From a virus: a stretch of DNA of 64,000 bases. The translations under genes and the position numbers were made by a program. Each line of letters opens with the position of its first letter. Within the stretch, counting starts at the first letter, position 1. The notes beneath the pieces were generated by a model. It was not told where the DNA came from. It made no database searches and saw only the letters and a list, made by a program, of their open reading frames with translations. Below, one piece after another: positions 2,186 through 51,811 of the stretch. The DNA lies in IMG/VR virus record IMGVR_UViG_3300029374_000001, positions 32,001 to 96,000 of that record. One strand, written 5' to 3'.

Positions 2186-2605
2186 TTAAGACGTAAAGTT
2201 CGTCTTGGAATAATATCTCGGATTGGTTTTAAGAATAGCCTTCTGGGCTTTGATAACATCACGTTTAACGTTGTTGCCATAACGGCGTACAATGTTAGCA
2301 ATAGCCTGCTTCTTAAGCATATGAGCTTTCTTCAAACGTTTCCAGTCAGCAGAATTAGACTCTTTGGCTTTCTGCATAGCAGCCAGCGTAATACGTCTAT
2401 TATAATCGTCAGTTCTGGAAAGACGGACGATTGTACGACGATTAACTGCTCCGCCTTCAACAAGAGCTTTAACTTCTGCGCTTTCCAAATACTGTACACG
2501 TTCTTCATCATCCATATGATTAACAAGATCAACAAACATTGATTCCAAGAGAGCGCCCATATCCTGGACTCCATCTCTCTCATTTTCATTATCGAGGAAT
2601 GACAC
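2186..2605 (-). CDS. hypothetical protein (139 aa)
   Basis: long ORF with codon usage like its neighbours; no recognisable motif. Confidence 0.5.
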   Translation of the reverse strand: MSFLDNENERDGVQDMGALLESMFVDLVNHMDDEERVQYLESAEVKALVEGGAVNRRTIVRLSRTDDYNRRITLAAMQKAKESNSADWKRLKKAHMLKKQAIANIVRRYGNNVKRDVIKAQKAILKTNPRYYSKTNFTS

Positions 2606-2748
2606 AGTATTTCACCTCCATTAGTGTTTTCAACATTCTTAATACATGACCACAATAAAATGTAGTTTAAATAAATGTTCTTATAATTGAATTAAAAAAT
2701 GATTTATTATAACACACTCCAATACATAGAGAAGAAAGGAGATATATA

Positions 2749-5352
2749 ATGAAACCTAGTCAAAGTATTGCTTTTCAAGATTATAAAGATACAATGAGAA
2801 GAAACATCAGATATTTATTTCCTCAATTAAGTAGTGACGAGTTGGAACGAGCTATAGAATATTCCATAAATAAGAGAATTATAAACTCAGCTTGTCAACT
2901 GAATGACACATATAAGAATGCTGTATATAATACTAATATGTTAGAATTAACAGAGTATATCATGCATGATCGACCAATACTGACATCCTTCGGATGTCTA
3001 TTTCATAGGCATGGAGATATAGATAATCCATTATACATGATGATACAAGAATTTGCAGATAGACGTAACAGATTTAAGAAAGAAATGCTAAAGCATAAAA
3101 AAGGTAGTGAGCAATATAAACATTTTGACTTAGCTCAAGCCGTCGCTAAGGTGGATGTCAATGCTGAAACAAACGCATTCTAATGCGTTTGGGATAGGCC
3201 TCTTTATAAAGTAATTTATAGAGAGAATCCTGGTGAATTGCTGGAAACCGGTAAAGATCTGATAACTACAATATATTTTTAATATATGAATGTGACGAAA
3301 GTCAGAAACAATATCAGATATAACCTAAGCTGAAATAAAAGAGTAGTATATATGAAATTCTTACTTATTTAAAAGAATATATATATTATTTGCTAAGGGT
3401 ATAATAAGAAAATCCGCAATCAGCAGCGAAGCTTCTATATATTATAGAAGAACGTTCAACGACTATTATGTAGAGTACAAGCGTATTCGAAGTGCCAGGC
3501 TCCAATATAATATTGGATGAAGATATAGTCTGTCCATGTATGAGAGTACATGAAGTTCATAAGAGAACTGGGTAGATGTAGCGAATCTATTCGAACACAT
3601 GAGATCTACGGCGCTATGGGGCAACCATCTTCTATATTTTATAACTTTGAAGTGGCAGCTTCCATTACCAGACAAGGAAGAGCTTCTATTGCAGCATCTA
3701 TTATGCTCTTTGAGTCTTTCTTAGCTAACAATATTAAATTTGGATCTTTGAACGAAGTGATTATGTTCATTGATCATATTGTATTAATGAAACCAACTAG
3801 ACAATATGAAGACCATCGAATCTTAGATAGAGATGTCTCTATCCAAGAAGTCTTTGATAAACTAATGAGTTCTTGTGGATATCGATGGAAACCAGATCAT
3901 ACAGAAGCCAATATTATCTGGAAAATTTTACATCAATTATCCCAATTTCATTTAAACAGACTCTATTATAAAAATAATATCTATGCTTTCTTTAATAATA
4001 CCGCACCCAAAGACTTCTTATTGGAGTTATTATATTCTTTGGATTCTCCATTTATCGATCCCAATTCTCCACCACCAATGATTAAGGCTAATTTGGATGT
4101 ATTGGTAGATATGGTCAAAGAGTATATTTATTATCCATATCAGATCATCGATAAAATAGAACGAGTAGAAACATTGTATCGTCAAATCGATTTAGTAACC
4201 GATACAGATTCTTGTATTATTTGTTTAAATCCATGGTATGAATATGTAGCCAATCTAACCAAAGATCTGGATATCGATCTGAAACATTATGAATTGGATA
4301 TAATTGGATTGTTGAATAAAGAAAATCCCAATGATGCATCTGATTTGAAAGAAGAAAGTAAAACAGAATATATCTACGATTTTAGAAATAAAGAAATTTT
4401 GGAAAGAAAACGATTAGTAGATCCATTTAAAATTATTCCAGAAGACGCTATGAGATATAGCATCATCAATATACTGGCATATATCATTAGTAAGCTATTA
4501 CGAGATTACTTCGATCGTATAAGCATTAAGAATAATGTAACTAATGATGCTCATAATTTTTGTTTGATGAATATGAAGAACGAATTCTTATTCTTACGGA
4601 TGTTATTGTCCGATGCTAAGAAGCATTATGCGTCTATTGTAGAACTTCAGGAAGGTCATAAAGTTCCCTTAGATAAGCAATTAGATATTAAAGGATTACA
4701 GATTGATAAGTCTGTTGTACCAGAATCTACTAAAGAAGCTCTTGGAAATATTTTACATGAAGATGTATTACGACCAAATTATATTGATCAAATGAAGATC
4801 ATCAATAAATTGGCTGTTCTGGAAAAGACCATCTATGATGATATCTATAATGGCGGATTGAAATACTATAGTCCTAAAAAGCTTAAACCATTTGTTACAT
4901 ATAAGAATCCAATGAGTACACAGCAGGTTAAAGCTTCTATTGTTTATAACTTATTTAGAGATGAAGATGAGGCATATATCAATATTGATGAAAATAATTC
5001 TGTATTGATTATTGGAGTTAATATTGATGCTCATTCATTAGAATCTTGTAAACTAAAAGAATCGGATCCTGAGAAATATGAAATCATGAGAAAGATTATT
5101 TATGAGAATCCAGTAATTGAAGTTTCTCAGAATAAAATTGCTGTGAAGATATTCAATGATAATCTAGCTCTAAATAGTCGAAAAATTACTAGTATAGCTA
5201 TTCCTAGAGATAGTCAAACACCTAAATGGATACTAGAGTTTATTGATTATGCCAGCATAGTTAAAGATAATATCGGTACCTTCCCATTGAAGAGTATTGG
5301 TATTACTAAGCTAGATACGAACAGTGCGTACAGTGGCATTATCAATCTATAA
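2749..5352 (+). CDS. family B DNA polymerase, C-terminal portion (fingers, motif B, motif C, thumb). Two exons, about 2749..3165 and 3604..5352, separated by a group I intron. The N-terminal exonuclease and motif A are not encoded here, so this is a split polymerase gene
   Basis: Own RBS AAAGGAG and ATG at 2749. Exon 1 ends '...FADRRNRFKKEML...AQAVAKVDVNA'. Exon 2 starts 'IYGAMGQPSSIFYNFEVAASITRQGRA'. Together these reconstitute Pol B motif B (KxxxNSxYG...A.SIT..GR). Motif C 'LVTDTDSCII' lies downstream. The in-frame TAA at 3181 and the ORF-less 3184..3549 are intron sequence. Confidence 0.7.
3166..3603 (+). ncRNA. group I self-splicing intron, ORF-less, in the DNA polymerase gene. The 3' boundary after G3603 is fairly firm; the 5' boundary is approximate
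   Basis: Canonical core elements: P-like 'GAATTGCTGGAAACC' (~3230), Q-like 'AATCCGCAATCAGCAGC' (~3410), R 'GTTCAACGACTA' (~3452), S 'GAAGATATAGTCTGTCC' (~3521). Phase-0 insertion splitting motif B. Homologous along its length to the intron at 49447..49845. Confidence 0.75.
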
Positions 5353-9211: not shown

Positions 9212-10063
9212 TTAACTATACTTCTGGCAGAATTTATCTATCTGATTTTCCACAAATCTACCAAGAGGAACAACAATTGTTTCATAAGATTCTGTCACCA
9301 TAGTAACAGATTTTTTATCTTCAGATAAAGTAATGCTCTTATAAATGGGAGAGAAGTCATTGCAGATCTGATAGAAGCTATAAGACTCTTTAATCAACAA
9401 GTCTACTACATCCTGATTCATAACAGGAGCTACAGCTTCAAATCCTTCTTTAACAATCTGCTGATTACCTTTAGAAGTAATCATATGATCTAAAGAATCT
9501 CCTTCAAATCCAGCAGATTCAGAAATAATGCGATTGGTATACGCATTATCATAAGATGGATAATAGACTCTATCATAAGTAACAATTCTTAAATTAGTTA
9601 CATTGGACTGCCCATTAACAATCTTGATAGAACCTAGGCTTCTTAATGAATAGGATGGCTTCTGTCCAGCTTTCAAATCTTCATTAAACGCTCTGCCGAG
9701 TTCGTTATTAGTTCCTCTGACATGAGCTTTAACATAATCTCCATCCATCCATAACTTAGTATACCAGACTTGCTCCAAAGTGGGGTCTACTTTCTGCTGT
9801 CTGGCTAAGTTCATATCCAACGGATGACCAGCTTCTCCTTTAAAGTTGCCAGTGCTTACCAATTCTCTGATACGATCAGAGTAAATTTCTTTACGCAAAT
9901 CTGCTTCTGTATAATAACGTCTGTTTCTATTTAATTTCATTGCCTGTTGTAGTGTACATTCAGCAACCAAGAAGCCATTATCATTACGAATTACGTCGCA
10001 AGAGACGCAATCTGCAACCCCTTCGTTGATAATATATGCTACAGGTTTATCTGATATTGGCAT
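9212..10063 (-). CDS. hypothetical protein (283 aa). A head-maturation protease is a possibility from position only, not supported by motifs
   Basis: ORF upstream of the acidic scaffold-like gene; contains 'GEAGHP' and 'SLRSLGS' but no confident protease signature. Confidence 0.4.
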   Translation of the reverse strand: MPISDKPVAYIINEGVADCVSCDVIRNDNGFLVAECTLQQAMKLNRNRRYYTEADLRKEIYSDRIRELVSTGNFKGEAGHPLDMNLARQQKVDPTLEQVWYTKLWMDGDYVKAHVRGTNNELGRAFNEDLKAGQKPSYSLRSLGSIKIVNGQSNVTNLRIVTYDRVYYPSYDNAYTNRIISESAGFEGDSLDHMITSKGNQQIVKEGFEAVAPVMNQDVVDLLIKESYSFYQICNDFSPIYKSITLSEDKKSVTMVTESYETIVVPLGRFVENQIDKFCQKYS

Positions 10064-30800: not shown

Positions 30801-33800
30801 AGGATCAACTGTTTTAACTATAGTTTTAGTCGGAGTCTCATTCTCTATAGTTACAAAACTTGTACGACCAATTTTAATATTGACTTCTGTATCGGTAATT
30901 TTATATTCATTATCGGTTCCGGTTGTTTCTACTCCTGTCATAGCCACTTCGAACTTATAGGTTGGTTTGAGTACAACAGTAATCTTATCATCTACATTGA
31001 CAGACGTATCTCCATTATGTAGTTCTCTACCATCATCTACAGCTTTGACTGTAACTCCTGCTATTTCTCCAGAGATATTAATCTTGGATGGAGTAAACTT
31101 AGGCACAGCTTTGACTTCAACAGTATCTTCATCTGCAATATATTTATTTCCAGATACTAACGTAGCACCAGTAACAACGATGTTATGTGTGGTTGCATTA
31201 TTAGAGCCTTTATAAAGAATATAGAATGAAGCTGTCTTTCTGATTGTATCGGAATTCGGGAATGTACTAATTGCTGTAGATATATTGTCTGCTGTACAAA
31301 CTGCCAATACATCTGTGGTCTGATTATTGATAGTAACAAACGGATGAAGCTCAACATCAATAACTACATTAGTCGCTTTAACCTTATAACAGTTTTCGTT
31401 AAGAGGATCTGCTTCCAAACCAGTAGTTGTACTTAACTTATAGCCTTCTTCCGGTATAATCTTAAGTATATCCAGTATCTTTACAGTCGTATCTCCATCA
31501 ACTACAGGAGTACTAGACGGATGCTTAGTTACGGTAACATGAGTTGAATTGGGAATATGAACAGTAACCTGTTTCTCTACAGCAATAATACTTACGACAT
31601 TCGATCTAACTTGATAAGTATTCCCAGATACTAAATCAGCACCAGTAATTTCTACATTGCACTTGAGTTCATCATCAGAATTCTTAAATTCAAGAGTGAA
31701 TTGATCGGTAACACGAAGAGTATTATTATTCGGGAAAGTTGTTATTTCCTGAATCGGAGGTCTTACTGTTTTGACTTTGAATATACCAGATGGTAGTACA
31801 TCAATAGAAGCAAACTCGAGTTCTTCCAATTCGATATTTACATTATATCCTGTAATCTTATAAATACCATTATCTGCATCTGCAACTTCCATACCAACAA
31901 TCGTATCATTCTTAAGCTTATATGGATATTTAGGAATAACCTTAAGCTGATTATTGATCTGCTGACTAAAATCGTTGTTATGAATCTGCTCATTTCCAGG
32001 AACAGTAAACACATCAACATGAGCTTCATCAGGAATATGAATAATAACTTTGTCTCGTTTACATTCTACTTTAGGATTAAGTCCGGTAATCTTATAAATA
32101 GACTGACCAGCATCTACAACTTCAATATCAGCGATCTTAGCCAGATCAACTGCGAATCCTAATTTAGGAAGAATCTTAATCTGAGTACCTATCTCTAATT
32201 GATCTGAAGTATGATATTCGGTATCGCCAGCTACATTAGTGACTTTAACTTCATCAGCAGATTCATTAGTGACTATGGTTAGCGTTCCTTTGGCAACTGT
32301 TACATTGATCATAACCGTTGTCGGAAGCGGATCATTAAATTTATAGATATTATTAAATCCAGTATCAGTAGCTCCTGTTACAGTAAACGAGTAGAATGAG
32401 TGATCTAATCCATCTTTCAAATATACACGAATAGAGTGGCTCAAACTACTAAAATTATATGAAGAACTATCTGGAAGCGTTAACTCTATCGCTCCATATT
32501 CATCCATTACTTTAAGGAGTTCTGGATGGTTAGAGTCAATCGTAATTGGAGTGCGATCTTCTATTAATATAGTAGGATTACCATCACCGGTTACTTTATA
32601 TGTATACTTATTTCCTACATGAGAAATTTGAGTTAAACAATTAATAGTGGGAACAAATTTCGAATCAATAACTTTAACAACAACAATTTCGTCTTTTGCT
32701 ATATAATCCGAACTTTCTAATGTATCTGTTTCATTTTCTCTGAATACTTCAGCACTACCAGGAGTACTAATAGTAATCTGTATTTCAAAGACATCATCTT
32801 TAAGTGTTGTTGTAAATACGGCACTAGGATGCACCAGTTTATAAGCAACAAAATCACCTTCTGGTCCAACCAATTCAATACCAGAAGATTGATCATCGTC
32901 TAATTTTACATACTTATGGAATTTAACGTAGATCTTAGTACCCAATTCAAATTCTGGATTAGTATCTGGGTCAATCGGAGGATCTCCAGGAGTTGTCGAT
33001 TTATACAGAGTAATTTCGCCATCATCAATTCCACAGGTAGCATTAACGGTAATATGAGCTTTCTTCTTTTCCGTCATAACTTTACATTCCGGACCAGTCA
33101 ACACCCAATGTTCCCCATCCTGTGTTGCATTGGTTATGGATGTAATCTCCCAGAGTTCTTGTAATTCTGTTGTCTTGAATATGGCTTTAACCTTTTCGCC
33201 AACATGAATACTCTGATCTGGGAAAACAGATATGATTCTATTACCATCTTCTACAGCCAATACATGTATCTGATCGGTATGCTCTACATCCAATTTAACC
33301 TTATCTGTTTCTGTAGGATATGGAATAGTAATAGAGGTTGCTGTGATATCTGGATTAATCTTAAATGTATATATCGGAAGATGAGTATCTGTTTGTTCTT
33401 CAGTATTAATCAAAGTACAATCTGTGATACTATTGGCTTCATATTTAAAGAATTTCTTTTTTAGCTTAATTTTAAACGTATTTCCTGCTTTGAGGACAGT
33501 ACCATCAGGAAGCACAGATCCATCATCTTTTAATACTTCATAGACAACATCGTTCGGAGTAGGAATATTAACAGTTACATTTACTTCTGCCTTAGAAGCA
33601 ATCGTTGGATCTGGTCCGGTTATAGTAAATACACCGGAATCATAAGTAACATCTTTACATCTATCCAAGTCTACTTTATATTTAGGATCTTTCGGAACAA
33701 ATTTCATTTTTGTTCCAATAGGATAAGCATCGTCCGGATTATATACCTGCAAAGCATTGTCTGGGTCAACAAGATCGAATTCTTCTTCCGTAGAAGATGG

Positions 33801-48595: not shown

Positions 48596-48904
48596 TCTCT
48601 ATAACACCTCCATAAAAAATAATTGGTATTATAAGAATGTCACAAAAAAATAATCCAGGTGACCTGACAGTCACCTGATATATTTCTGATTACTCTATGT
48701 GTCTTCAGAATCTCCTGGATTATTTTCTTAAAATTATATCGTTTGTTACTCTTCTATGAGCTATGTTACAATCATTCAACGATATCGGATAAATCTGTTC
48801 CTGTATCCCACATTTCCAGATCCACCTCCTTATTGTCTATACTCTATATAGACTTATAATAAGTATATAAAATATTACCTCTGAATATCTTATATACTCA
48901 GAGA

Positions 48905-48952
48905 TATATTATATTATTTCAGAAAAATTAGATTACAAAATAAAAAATAAAG
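48905..48952 (-). promoter_or_regulatory. fourth copy of the UP-TTGTAA-N17-TATAAT promoter element, serving 47939..48595
   Basis: plus-strand 'ATATATTATATTATTTCAGAAAAATTAGATTACAAAATAAAAAATAA'. Confidence 0.45.
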
Positions 48953-48990
48953 AGAGTCAAAAGGAGTACAACTAAAAGCTCTCTTTATTT
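48953..48990 (-). terminator. terminator of the beta-prime N gene: AAAGAGAG...CTCTCTTT stem plus T-run (minus strand)
   Basis: 8-bp arms AAAGAGAG/CTCTCTTT with ATTTTTT on the minus strand. Confidence 0.4.
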
Positions 48991-49200
48991 TTTCTGCCCT
49001 ATACTTATTAGGCAGCTTGGTGTGTGGAGACGAAGAGGGTATAATATGTACTACGTAGTTAAAATCAGTTTCCTTTTTGAGTTTGTTATAGAAGCCTCTG
49101 AATAGGCTTTAGTTCTCTCCCCCTCGGAAGCAGCTTTTATAACCGTAGTACATACTATTCTTTCTCATCTCGCTGATATAATATATAACTCAAAGAATAT

Positions 49201-51144
49201 TTATCTGGCATACTTTTTCTTCAAAGCAATAATCTTATCCATTTGTGTGGGTGTATACTTGTTTCTGGATAAATAGATCAATGCATTTGAATTAATCAAG
49301 GTATCTTTGAATACATTCATAGAGTTATTGAATTTCCCATCATCTCTGGAAATCATCATAGCATTTCTGGGATCAAATACTTCTTGTGCAGACTTCCAAA
49401 ATTCATCATTGACGATATAAATAATATTAAGTGTATCTCCATCGAACGTTGTGGTCAAATAGATTCGCTACATCTACCCAGTTCTCTTATGAACTTCTAT
49501 ATACTTTCATATACAGACCAGACTATATCACATCCATAATTGTATGGAGCCTTGCATTTCGAGTACGCTGTACTCTACACCCCGCGACGGGTTAGTCGTT
49601 GAACCTGTTTGAACAGGTGCTGATTGTCCATTTTCTCATTATACCCTTAGCAAATTAGATATATCTCTTTAATAAGTAAGATTTACATATATCTAACTCT
49701 TGTATTTCAGCATAGGTTATCTTATAAATCGTTTCTACTTTCGTAACCATATAGGTTTTGTAAGCTTTAGGAGTTTCCAGCTTTTAACAAGGTTACTCAC
49801 ACATGTTACCATATATGAGGACTTTTGTATTTTCTAAATACGTTAATCCGCAGCAAATGACGACAATACCTGTAATGGCATACCCATAGTATAATTATCA
49901 TTTATTCCGATACACTTCATAGCTTTGATGGAACCATAATCAATTGTCGGGTTCCTGTTAATAAGTACTGGTATACCACCATCGCTAGTCGCAATGATAT
50001 TTTCAATAATATCTCGGATTCGTTGATCGGGCACAATCTGAGCTTGTTTAAATCTCATATATGCATCATTATACCCAATATTATACGTTCGAACCAAGAT
50101 ATTGATGATTGTTTGTTGTAATAACTCTAAGAGTGTATGATAACTCAATGTGACTTGATTAACTCTTAGGGTTGGATCTGGAACAATAACAGACCGAGAT
50201 GTAAAACTACATCTGCCTCCTATCAGATTTCTTATAATACCTTTCTTACCAGAACAGATATTAACGACTTCTGTGTACAAAGCATTGTATCGATCCTGCA
50301 TATTCCATAGAATAACATTTCTGTATTTAGGAATGTTATACATAGACAACTTATCATTTCTAATCATAGCAGCAATCTTAGCCATCATATTAAAGATCGC
50401 ATTTGTTTCTTCAAAGGTAAATCTGGTTCCTTCTACTTTAAATGGTCGTAAACCTGTAGAATATACTGGTACATTATGAATGAATACTTTTTCTCTATTC
50501 TTCATAATGTCTTTATAGTAGTCTTCTTTCTTACCTTTGAATTTACTATGATAATATTCCATAATCTCATCAAACTTCTGTTCAAATTCAATGAGACCAA
50601 TACCTTTATAGGTATCGTCTAACTTTGTTTTTCTATATTTTCTTTTAGTCTGAGATTGAACTAACTTAGAACTATATTTTTGTATAGGATTTCCATTGGC
50701 ATCCAAATCAATCTCTGGTTGAATGATAGATTCTAATAGCTGTTGCCCTAAATACTTAGATAAAGACTGATAGATATTTGGATGAATGATAGCATACTTT
50801 CCAGTAGGAATCCATCCTGTAATACTGAAGTCTTCTCCAACGAACTTAACTTTAGTTCTACATCTAGGGCAAATCATTCCCTCATTATTTTTGCCCTGTA
50901 ATTCTTTACAATCACAAGAATATCGATCTGCATATGCATCGGGATCTTGTAATGTTTTCATATACTTTTCAGAATAAATCGAGTCGGATCTGGATAACGT
51001 TTTCTTAATATCCAATGGTTCGCTGATAATGAAACCTTTACCAGATTCCATATCTTTTTCTTTTTCTTTGTCTAAATCAATTCTCTCCAATCTTGTTGTA
51101 AATTTACATCCTTCTGGATATTTTACATTTAGATTGATTTCCAT
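49201..51144 (-). CDS. multisubunit RNA polymerase beta-prime subunit, N-terminal portion (split subunit). Two exons, 51144..49846 and 49446..49201, joined across a group I intron
   Basis: N-terminal Zn finger 'CDCKELQGKNNEGMICPRCRTKV'; 'GKKGIIRNLIGGRCSFTSRSVIVPDP' matching '[22 protein letters not shown]'; 'VLINRNPTIDYGSIKAMK'. Exon 1 ends '...FAAD' and exon 2 begins 'FDGDTLNII', restoring the catalytic NADFDGD motif. Confidence 0.75.
49447..49845 (-). ncRNA. group I self-splicing intron (ORF-less) inserted in phase 0 inside the codons of the RNAP catalytic DFDGD motif
   Basis: minus-strand R 'GTTCAACGACTAA' (~49590-49602), S 'GATATAGTCTGG' (~49525), P-like 'GCTGGAAAC'. The 3' ~40 nt 'AGTTCATAAGAGAACTGGGTAGATGTAGCGAATCTATT' are nearly identical to intron 3166..3603. 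The exon U precedes the 5' splice site and the intron ends in G. Confidence 0.75.
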
Positions 51145-51222
51145 CCATACTCCTCCTTTTTGATAAAAATAAAAATGAGAAGACTGTAATTAGCCTTCTC
51201 ATAGCTATAATATATGGTTGAA

Positions 51223-51630
51223 TTAAGAATTGACATTAACAAAGTCAAACCAGAGTTCATTAGAATTTCCAGTATTGTCTTCCTCTTCTGCAATAATGTA
51301 TACAGGGTCATTATTCACACAGTATACACAATCCAAAACAGATGGTTGATCTTCTCTAGGAATATACACGTTAGCATGTTTCTTAAGAGGATCATCAATG
51401 TCAATCTTAATTCCTCTCTTACCAATATTCAATACGACATTATTGTTTACGTCAACCACTCTGATCAAATCATCAGAGACAATAACTTTCGTACCAAATT
51501 TAGAATTAACGACAATATCTTTATTAGATTCGGTTATTATATCTGGAGGGGTTGTACCCTCCAGATCCATCTTTTTATTTTTTATCTGCTGCATTTGGTC
51601 TATCCTTCTTATTGGAATAATGAATATCAA
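51223..51630 (-). CDS. hypothetical protein; likely start at the internal Met (51594) with a GAAGGA RBS
   Basis: ORF. Confidence 0.4.
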   Translation of the reverse strand: MIFIIPIRRIDQMQQIKNKKMDLEGTTPPDIITESNKDIVVNSKFGTKVIVSDDLIRVVDVNNNVVLNIGKRGIKIDIDDPLKKHANVYIPREDQPSVLDCVYCVNNDPVYIIAEEEDNTGNSNELWFDFVNVNS

Positions 51631-51811
51631 TATCTACCAAATCAGTTCCTTTTCTTTTAGAAACTGTGACTTCTGCGCCTTTATAAATGTCTTTCAGTGC
51701 AGATACAAGGGAATCTGTTATAGACTCCTCATTTTGTTTTTTGCCATTCCCAATCTCCTTAGTTACGGGTGTTTCAGGAATAGTAATTACGTCTTTTTTC
51801 TTATTCATCAT
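51575..51811 (-). CDS. small basic protein (78 aa)
   Basis: ORF. Confidence 0.35.
   Translation of the reverse strand: MMNKKKDVITIPETPVTKEIGNGKKQNEESITDSLVSALKDIYKGAEVTVSKRKGTDLVDIDIHYSNKKDRPNAADKK

Follow-up and report, generated by a model that had tools for sequence, protein, structure and literature searches.

In huge gut phages, essential genes harbor a mean of 18.5 group I introns per genome (PMC12880540), and introns favor active-site codons since their imprecise loss is lethal (reviewed in PMC12908238). Among the multisubunit RNA polymerases (RNAPs) of jumbo phages, gp210 of PhiPA3, the virion RNAP β gene, is interrupted after conserved Asp residues by a group I intron bearing an HNH endonuclease (Birkholz et al. 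2024, PMC11620839). In Bacillus phage AR9 (AR9/PBS1), the annotated coding sequence (CDS) of g270 is in two pieces, and the insert between them holds the gene for an HNH endonuclease, g271. The AR9 introns reportedly self-splice.

We describe here a further case in 64,000 nt of DNA (hereafter the window) from an uncultured, AT-rich jumbo phage (IMG/VR virus record IMGVR_UViG_3300029374_000001, positions 32,001 to 96,000; 32.6% G+C). A gene at 49201..51144 on the minus strand, evidently encoding the N-terminal part of the RNAP β′ subunit (β′-N), is interrupted within its catalytic motif, AAD|FDGD (bars mark insertion points), by a group I intron that is very probably competent to splice and to restore the β′ active site. 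The intron is one more case of a known phage intron habit. The original prediction had singled out an insertion in RNAP active-site codons as striking, and this novelty was overrated: the intron of AR9 g270 is annotated in the same DxDGD motif, and active-site insertion is expected (PMC12908238).

PhiPA3 gp210 and the window gene are both jumbo-phage multisubunit RNAP genes in which a group I intron directly follows conserved Asp residues and for which intron-less alleles occur in related phages. They differ in the subunit concerned and in the PhiPA3 endonuclease, which has no counterpart in the window intron: it is an active nicking HNH enzyme, and its interference with a competitor phage has been demonstrated (PMC11620839). 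AR9 g270 is an orthologue of the window gene, and its intron likewise follows a U, ends in G and contains the R/S core GTTCAACGACTA, GATATAGTC. Placed by means of the intron-less phage Goe21, however, the AR9 intron sits 6 nt farther downstream (DYDG|D) than the window intron (D|FDGD). It spans about 900 nt and encodes a homing endonuclease of the HNH/NUMOD4 kind; the window intron has 399 nt and no open reading frame (ORF). Because R1, a covariance model specific to the window intron family, does not match the AR9 intron at E ≤ 0.01, we assign the latter to a different lineage of the same class.

A β′-N gene divided between catalytic codons

The gene comprises three parts:

49846..51144, minus strand: exon 1 of the RNAP β′-N gene, 433 codons (M...QVLSSFAAD), with a PHROG 2987 match at E 1e-64
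49447..49845, minus strand: group I intron, 399 nt, ORF-free, starting with UAA (an in-frame stop) and ending ...ACG, with ωG at 49447
49201..49446, minus strand: exon 2 of the RNAP β′-N gene, FDGDTLNII...KKKYAR, 81 codons plus TAA

The exon 1 ATG at 51144 is preceded by a GGAGG ribosome-binding site, and the minus strand at the end of this exon reads TCA TTT GCT GCG GAT, followed by TAA at 49845..49843; the final codon, GAT, encodes the first catalytic Asp. Exon 2 opens with TTC GAT GGA GAT ACA CTT AAT and closes with a stop codon at 49201. Excision of 49447..49845 in silico joins GAT|TTC in phase 0, yielding a 514-aa protein that reads ...QVLSSFAADFDGDTLNIIY... / ...GMPLQVLSSFAADFDGDTLNIIYIVNDEFW... 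across the junction. AADFDGD, at residues 431-437, exists only once the insert is removed. The predicted junction peptide is ...VLSSFAADFDGDTLNIIY, and the predicted junction of the spliced RNA, lacking 49447..49845, is ...GCUGCGGAU|UUCGAUGGAGAU. A U precedes the 5′ end of the intron, and its last base is G (...CACAACG|UUC). The intron is closed in each of its three sense frames, by 12, 10 and 6 stops, and it holds no sense-strand ORF of 40 aa or more and thus no endonuclease ORF.

The joined protein passes the Pfam cutoff for RNA_pol_Rpb1_2 (PF00623; 53 bits against 25.3, E 6e-14, residues 309-444) and matches PHROG 2987, "RNA polymerase beta subunit", at E 1e-64. The best match among solved structures is β′-N of the AR9 non-virion RNAP (PDB 7S00/7S01 chain d, E 1e-42), with residues 105-484 of the query aligned to 53-419 of the 426 residues of 7S00_d; phiKZ gp55 follows (PDB 7OGP_A, E 4e-18). 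In the 7S00_d alignment, fAADFDGDtLNII of the joined protein falls on lSGDYDGDvLNII of AR9. The β′-N gene ends just after the double-psi β-barrel (DPBB) domain, and no second copy of it was seen within the 64-kb window.

A large protein collection contains 948 relatives of the joined protein. The closest full-length one, P0002 (78% identical, 515 aa), was read on 15 contigs, one of them 226 kb, and is uninterrupted at the junction point (...FGADFDGDTLNIV / ...SFGADFDGDTLNIV... / ...LQVLDSFGADFDGDTLNIVYIPNDNFWKSAEE...). Because P0002 is contiguous there, the junction is fixed at AAD|FDGD, which rules out SSF|TTTFDGD. The latter would give a protein of equal length but without the first Asp and without P1 pairing, and TTT is found in no homologue. 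On these comparisons, 49201..51144 (minus strand) is best described as a single gene for the N-terminal β′ subunit of a jumbo-phage non-virion multisubunit RNAP, by sequence orthologous to AR9 gp270 and phiKZ gp55.

The original prediction fares well at this level. It had proposed that ORF 49843..51144 ends in FAAD* (the minus strand reads ...TTT GCT GCG GAT TAA), that joining across 49447..49845 recreates the Mg-binding DFDGD motif (AADFDGD, in frame in 514 aa), and that the insertion is in phase 0 after a U with an intron-final G, all of which was confirmed to the base. Its statement that the two ORFs are one gene agrees with the Pfam, PHROG and AR9 structure matches and with the uninterrupted homologue P0002, and the similarity to β′ that it expected of the joined ORF is plain (Pfam 53 bits, PHROG 1e-64, 7S00 1e-42).

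Could the gene be truly split, with a 433-aa polypeptide and one of about 81-85 aa assembling into the enzyme and the spacer being a dead intron relic or intergenic DNA? Jumbo-phage β and β′ are naturally divided over several genes (PMC7598289), and a program-made ORF, 49201..49458, does begin at 49458. That start, however, is the first TTG after a stop, the ORF reads MTTTFDGDTLNIIY, and the TTG, which the original prediction had called a fake start, is not preceded by a Shine-Dalgarno sequence; nor does any homologue have an equivalent of the additional residues MTTT. The break would moreover part the first from the second catalytic Asp, the spacer retains a complete ribozyme core with compensatory changes, and the natural split site of β′, after the DPBB domain, is where the window gene already ends. 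We consider a split gene very improbable.

Architecture and class of the intron

The elements of the intron, from its 5′ end, are as follows:

49827..49841, minus strand: P1 extension hairpin GUAUUU-AGA-AAAUAC, from the fold
49819..49823, minus strand: internal guide sequence AGUCC, forming P1 with exon GGAU and intron U1, with a U·G wobble at the 5′ splice site
49796..49819, minus strand: P2, 10 bp, GUAA tetraloop, from the fold; double-sided changes in 6 of 7 counted pairs
49787..49792, minus strand: P3 5′ strand CCUUGU, partner GCAAGG at 49550..49555; 100% of cells paired, double changes in 4 of 6 pairs
49777..49781, minus strand: P4 5′ strand GCUGG (P element), partner UCAGC (Q element) at 49619..49623; covariation alignment and fold
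49770..49772, minus strand: P5 UCC, partner GGA at 49627..49629; 4 of 4 P5 pairs covary
49630..49769, minus strand: P5 extension, about 140 nt, holding UAUGG and CUAAG
49603..49618, minus strand: P6 hairpin ACCUGU-UCAA-ACAGGU, from the fold
49593..49604, minus strand: R element GUUCAACGACUA, including the P7 5′ strand GACUA at 49593..49597
49561..49591, minus strand: P7.1 and P7.2 hairpins, periphery typical of subgroup IA, from the fold
49533..49548, minus strand: P8 hairpin UCCAUA-CAAU-UAUGGA; fold and covariation alignment
49521..49529, minus strand: S element GAUAUAGUC, including the P7 3′ strand UAGUC at 49521..49525, in a pseudoknot with 49593..49597
49460..49515, minus strand: P9 (GAAA tetraloop), P9.1 and P9.2 hairpins, from the fold

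All four of the P, Q, R and S elements are present (GCUGG / UCAGC / GUUCAACGACUA / GAUAUAGUC), and a search of the window with the combined R pattern gives a single match, where chance would give 0. When the 399 nt are folded without constraints, the minimum-free-energy structure contains the P1 extension, P2-P6, P7.1, P7.2, P8, P9, P9.1 and P9.2, at an energy 3.3 standard deviations below that of shuffles (z = -3.3). P1 with its U·G pair is likewise the unconstrained minimum-free-energy fold from exon position -6 through the guide sequence, and the GAU/GUC pairing of P1 recurs in 7 homologues, with covariation at intron positions +1/+2. The hairpins between P7 and P3′ are CCCG-UCG-CGGG (P7.1) and GAGUAC-AGC-GUACUC (P7.2), and UAUGG and CUAAG in the P5 extension appear to resemble a GAAA-tetraloop receptor.

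For covariation analysis, same-site introns were collected from seven other metagenomic contigs, and nine sequences were aligned (A3). Peripheral loops were trimmed by hand because a full-intron MAFFT alignment (A2) was too misaligned in the variable loops for pair counts. Across the nine introns, standard pairs make up 96.5% of the cells for 36 pairs (P2-P6, the P7 pseudoknot and P8), compared with 28-42% when the 3′ partners are slid by 1-3 columns. Half of the pairs (18 of 36) display double-sided changes, and in 500 shuffles the observed value was never reached for any of the five measures. The P7 pseudoknot is 100% paired, with two double-change pairs, both from the contig L009.

A second intron of this type was identified elsewhere in the window:

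3166..3603, plus strand: sister group I intron, 438 nt, ORF-less, splitting the family B DNA polymerase gene at motif B

It matches RF00028 at 3179..3552 (plus strand) with 61.3 bits and separates the ORFs 2749..3183 and 3550..5352 (PF00136/PF20286 homologues). Its junction, GTC AAT GCT|...GAG|ATC TAC GGC, gives AKVDVNA|IYGAMGQ, in agreement with the contiguous homologue P0123 (AKVDVNAIYGSMG). The sister intron shares with the β′ intron its phase 0 insertion after a U, final G, lack of an ORF and overall architecture; the two are about 77-82% identical (82% mean column identity), with a nearly identical P9.1-P9.2 tail, and their differences are compensatory, as with CGG/CCG in place of UCC/GGA in P5. 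Unlike the β′ intron, the sister pairs a guide GGC with exon GCU, lacks P7.1, possesses a P6a hairpin and resides in a different host motif, KVDVNA|IYGAMG.

The 3′ core half of the window intron (P6′-P7-P3′-P8-P7′-P9-P9.1; positions 236-381) shares 71-75% DNA identity with introns of T4 nrdB (I-TevIII), Brochothrix A9 ribonucleotide reductase and many Staphylococcus phages, and the P7.1/P7.2 architecture is held in common. The T4 nrdB intron, which belongs to subgroup IA2, differs in its host gene (ribonucleotide reductase rather than RNAP) and in its (defective) endonuclease ORF, and the P5 extension of the window intron is unmatched in nrdB-type introns. The finer assignment of the window intron may be IA2 as well. 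Because of the T4 nrdB-like core and a P8-J8/7-P7 motif that recurs in at least 120 viral contigs, the insert at 49447..49845 is to all appearances an ordinary phage group I ribozyme of the IA type.

Inteins and group II introns both occur in jumbo-phage polymerase genes (PMC12350094, PMC12880540), and either could in principle account for an insert here. The first intron codon, UAA, stops the frame, in which 12 stops occur, and there is no Rfam group II match at any threshold, while a group I core is demonstrated. The closed frames, the RF00028 match and the covariation of the group I core refute such an identity, which we regard as next to impossible.

In a local scan of 701 nt, RF00028 matched 49498..49866 (minus strand) at 31.2 bits (E 4.7e-6), the Rfam check that the original prediction had proposed. 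This match, the scores of the sister intron and of the related locus L138, the covariation of the core and the de novo fold uphold its reading of the intervening segment as a group I intron, as do the roughly 400-nt spacer without an ORF (399 nt, closed frames) and the R and S elements GTTCAACGACTA and GATATAGTC that it had placed on the minus strand. The P1 placement implied by Rfam, with a splice site after UCAU, is mismatched and out of frame and was rejected. Run unfiltered over the whole window, R1 detects the two introns and no others, at 52-53 bits (E about 1e-9). A weak R1 match at 9855..10004 (minus strand; 16.5 bits, E 0.08) lies wholly inside the 283-aa ORF 9212..10063 and was taken as chance.

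Several points weigh against a splicing-competent intron. The excision of 49447..49845 is itself deduced from sequence. The RF00028 score falls below the 50-bit gathering cutoff (31.2 against 50), and the β′ intron is absent from the results of Rfam scans of the whole window, whether run at the gathering threshold or at E ≤ 0.1. The peripheral loops of A3 were trimmed by hand prior to alignment, and R1 splits each of the window introns into two matches. P10 is weak, with two possible pairs identified by eye (exon 2 UU with AA 5′ of the guide), and the outermost position of P5 is C·C in the window copy.

Some of these points need context. The gathering threshold is a curation criterion and not a biological one. 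When nine related loci were scanned together with Rfam (45.9 kb, E ≤ 0.001), one intron only was returned, because filters tighten as sequence grows, and even the annotated AR9 intron went unreported, which implies that RF00028, with its filters, detects introns of this type poorly. The low score does not settle the matter, since the sister intron reaches 61.3 bits, the same-site intron of L138 reaches 51.2 bits, above the gathering cutoff, and the AR9 intron is missed. The splitting by R1 arises because the model lacks the 140-nt P5 extension, and R1 was therefore used only as a detector.

The subthreshold Rfam score and the C·C position, together with a P6 that is shortened and a P6a that is absent compared with relatives, could also reflect a real intron that has lost splicing, leaving this β′-N copy a pseudogene of a defective or decaying genome. 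Both exons are nevertheless intact and in frame, the core elements and both splice-site nucleotides are canonical, and the window displays no other β′-N copy. A 97%-identical strain, on a 256,389-bp metagenome contig, has the same intron arrangement with an unchanged core: 11 of the 13 intron differences between the strains fall within the P5 extension, and the single core-helix difference keeps its pairing (G-C to G·U). The concentration of strain differences in the P5 extension fits selection on a ribozyme, as judged from the two sequences. Loss of splicing is accordingly improbable, if somewhat less so than a split gene.

For a splicing-competent intron, the following course is proposed, its chemistry taken from the established group I mechanism. 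The β′-N gene would be transcribed as one pre-mRNA, in which the guide AGUCC would pair with exon GGAU and intron U1 to form P1, with the U·G wobble at the splice site. Exogenous guanosine, bound by P7, would attack after U49846; ωG 49447 would take over the G-binding site, and the 5′ exon would attack the 3′ splice site, with ligation of GAU to UUC. The intron-initial UAA would halt ribosomes on unspliced RNA, so that the spliced mRNA alone would give rise to the 514-aa subunit with its intact DFDGD triad.

Same-site and neighboring introns in relatives

In a survey of the best 120 cluster representatives, β′-N is contiguous across DxDGD in 89; about 10 sequences end at AAD| or close to it, and about 21 after ...LINRN| (in the barrel's NRNPT motif). 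AAD|FDGD or NRN|PT is the site of an interruption in roughly one in four related metagenomic alleles, and the survey shows that DxDGD and the nearby NRN|PT motif have been invaded by introns repeatedly and independently, sometimes with micro-exons of 6-12 nt left between introns.

Introns at the same site as in the window occur in L003, L007-L011, L013, L136 and L138. In each, ..GAU| is followed by U, a GUC guide lies just 5′ of P2, and the terminal base is G, except in L136. These loci and the window contrast with the intron-less alleles L004-L006, which encode a 78% identical protein. GAT is the first Asp codon in every intron-bearing allele at AAD|FDGD examined at the DNA level and supplies the U of the P1 U·G pair; L005 (about 2790..2810), the single intron-less sequence examined, has GAC instead (GGAGCTGACTTTGATGGAGAT) and gave no match to R1.

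Several of the related loci carry further introns. In L014, a 1030-nt intron (2442..3471) is inserted at DFD|GD, 6 nt from the window site; its P6 loop holds a 196-aa ORF for an HNH_3/NUMOD4 endonuclease, a domain pair shared with AR9 g271. L013 (3809..4496) has twin introns around a 12-nt exon TTTGATGGAGAT (FDGD); an ORF starts in the P6 loop of the second, inserted after DFDGD|, and the contig ends inside this intron. L136/L137 are interrupted at both NRN|PT and AAD|FDGD. The NRN|PT intron of L136 (about 335 nt, 3710..4046) provides the only DNA-level check of that hotspot. The second intron of L136/L137 (about 4150..4502), if its junction is AAD|FDGD, ends ...GGAUCGA with a terminal A rather than G, which is not an assembly slip because it is identical in two independent samples. 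L138 (ANDE20-1_SAMEA4689005 scaffold_1906) contains three tandem group I introns in the β′ active-site region (3790..4870), separated by two micro-exons: AAATGCCGAT, of 10 nt, which completes L-N-A-D, and TTCGATGGTGAT, of 12 nt, which encodes FDGD. Of the three introns, the middle one lies at the site used in the window and is the one that scores 51.2 bits.

A cultured example was found in the Staphylococcus jumbo phage Machias (MW349128.1, L139), where CPT_Machias_002 contains two unannotated group I introns of 182 and 180 nt (2799..3166) flanking a 6-nt micro-exon, GCCGAT. The second is inserted at the window's site (AD|YDGD, after GAT), ends in G and has no ORF; neither possesses the P5 extension of the window intron. 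The GenBank protein has 373 aa and reads into intron 1, and the predicted spliced product has 436 aa (...AGMGADYDGDTLNII...).

These relatives bear on the possibility that the window, which comes from a metagenome assembly, is a chimeric contig with an unrelated intron-like insert. Insertion at the same nucleotide recurs across samples, in assemblies made independently of one another (L003, L007/L008, L009, L010, L011, L013, L136/L137 and L138), the cultured phage Machias has an insertion at the same site, and the window insertion is exactly in phase 0 with canonical splice-site bases. An assembly artefact is therefore extremely improbable.

Because it lacks a homing endonuclease gene, the window intron is not autonomously mobile. 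Most likely, it arrived by homing and then lost its endonuclease gene, or is moved in trans; it could also be movable in trans by the endonucleases of neighboring introns ("collaborative homing"). It would persist because the active site survives exact deletion only.

Genome context and significance

A megablast search with 48600..51700 returned zero matches among GenBank phages, and the phage is therefore new at the DNA level. Downstream of exon 2 lies an ORF-free gap of about 600 nt (48596..49200, minus strand), which is shorter in the relative L005 (about 370 nt). Terminator-like hairpins lie at 48876..48906 and, with a match on both strands, at 48655..48678; the gap also shows some long-range complementarity (GTACTACGG...CTACGTAGTAC) and has no Rfam match.

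For annotation, the two ORFs should be merged as one spliced CDS; otherwise, the phage seems to lack a catalytically competent β′. The same error stands in the public record, where CPT_Machias_002 is truncated and reads into its intron. The window intron leaves knowledge of how group I introns work unchanged and adds an ORF-less, well-structured case to the self-splicing introns known in jumbo-phage polymerase genes.

More tentatively, the DxDGD stretch could be a contested homing hotspot, at which an ORF-less intron shields its gene by splitting the recognition site of the HNH endonucleases of neighboring introns (the L014 and AR9 types). Such a hotspot may comprise four or more insertion points in a span of 12 nt, with as many as three introns stacked together. 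We regard shielding as possible but doubtful on present comparisons; if it holds, the essential RNAP gene of the phage would be protected during co-infection. These loci offer a natural system for asking what minimum exon length is compatible with group I splicing, in what order stacked introns are spliced, and whether occupancy by an intron protects against the intron endonucleases that mediate competition between phages such as PhiPA3 and PhiKZ.

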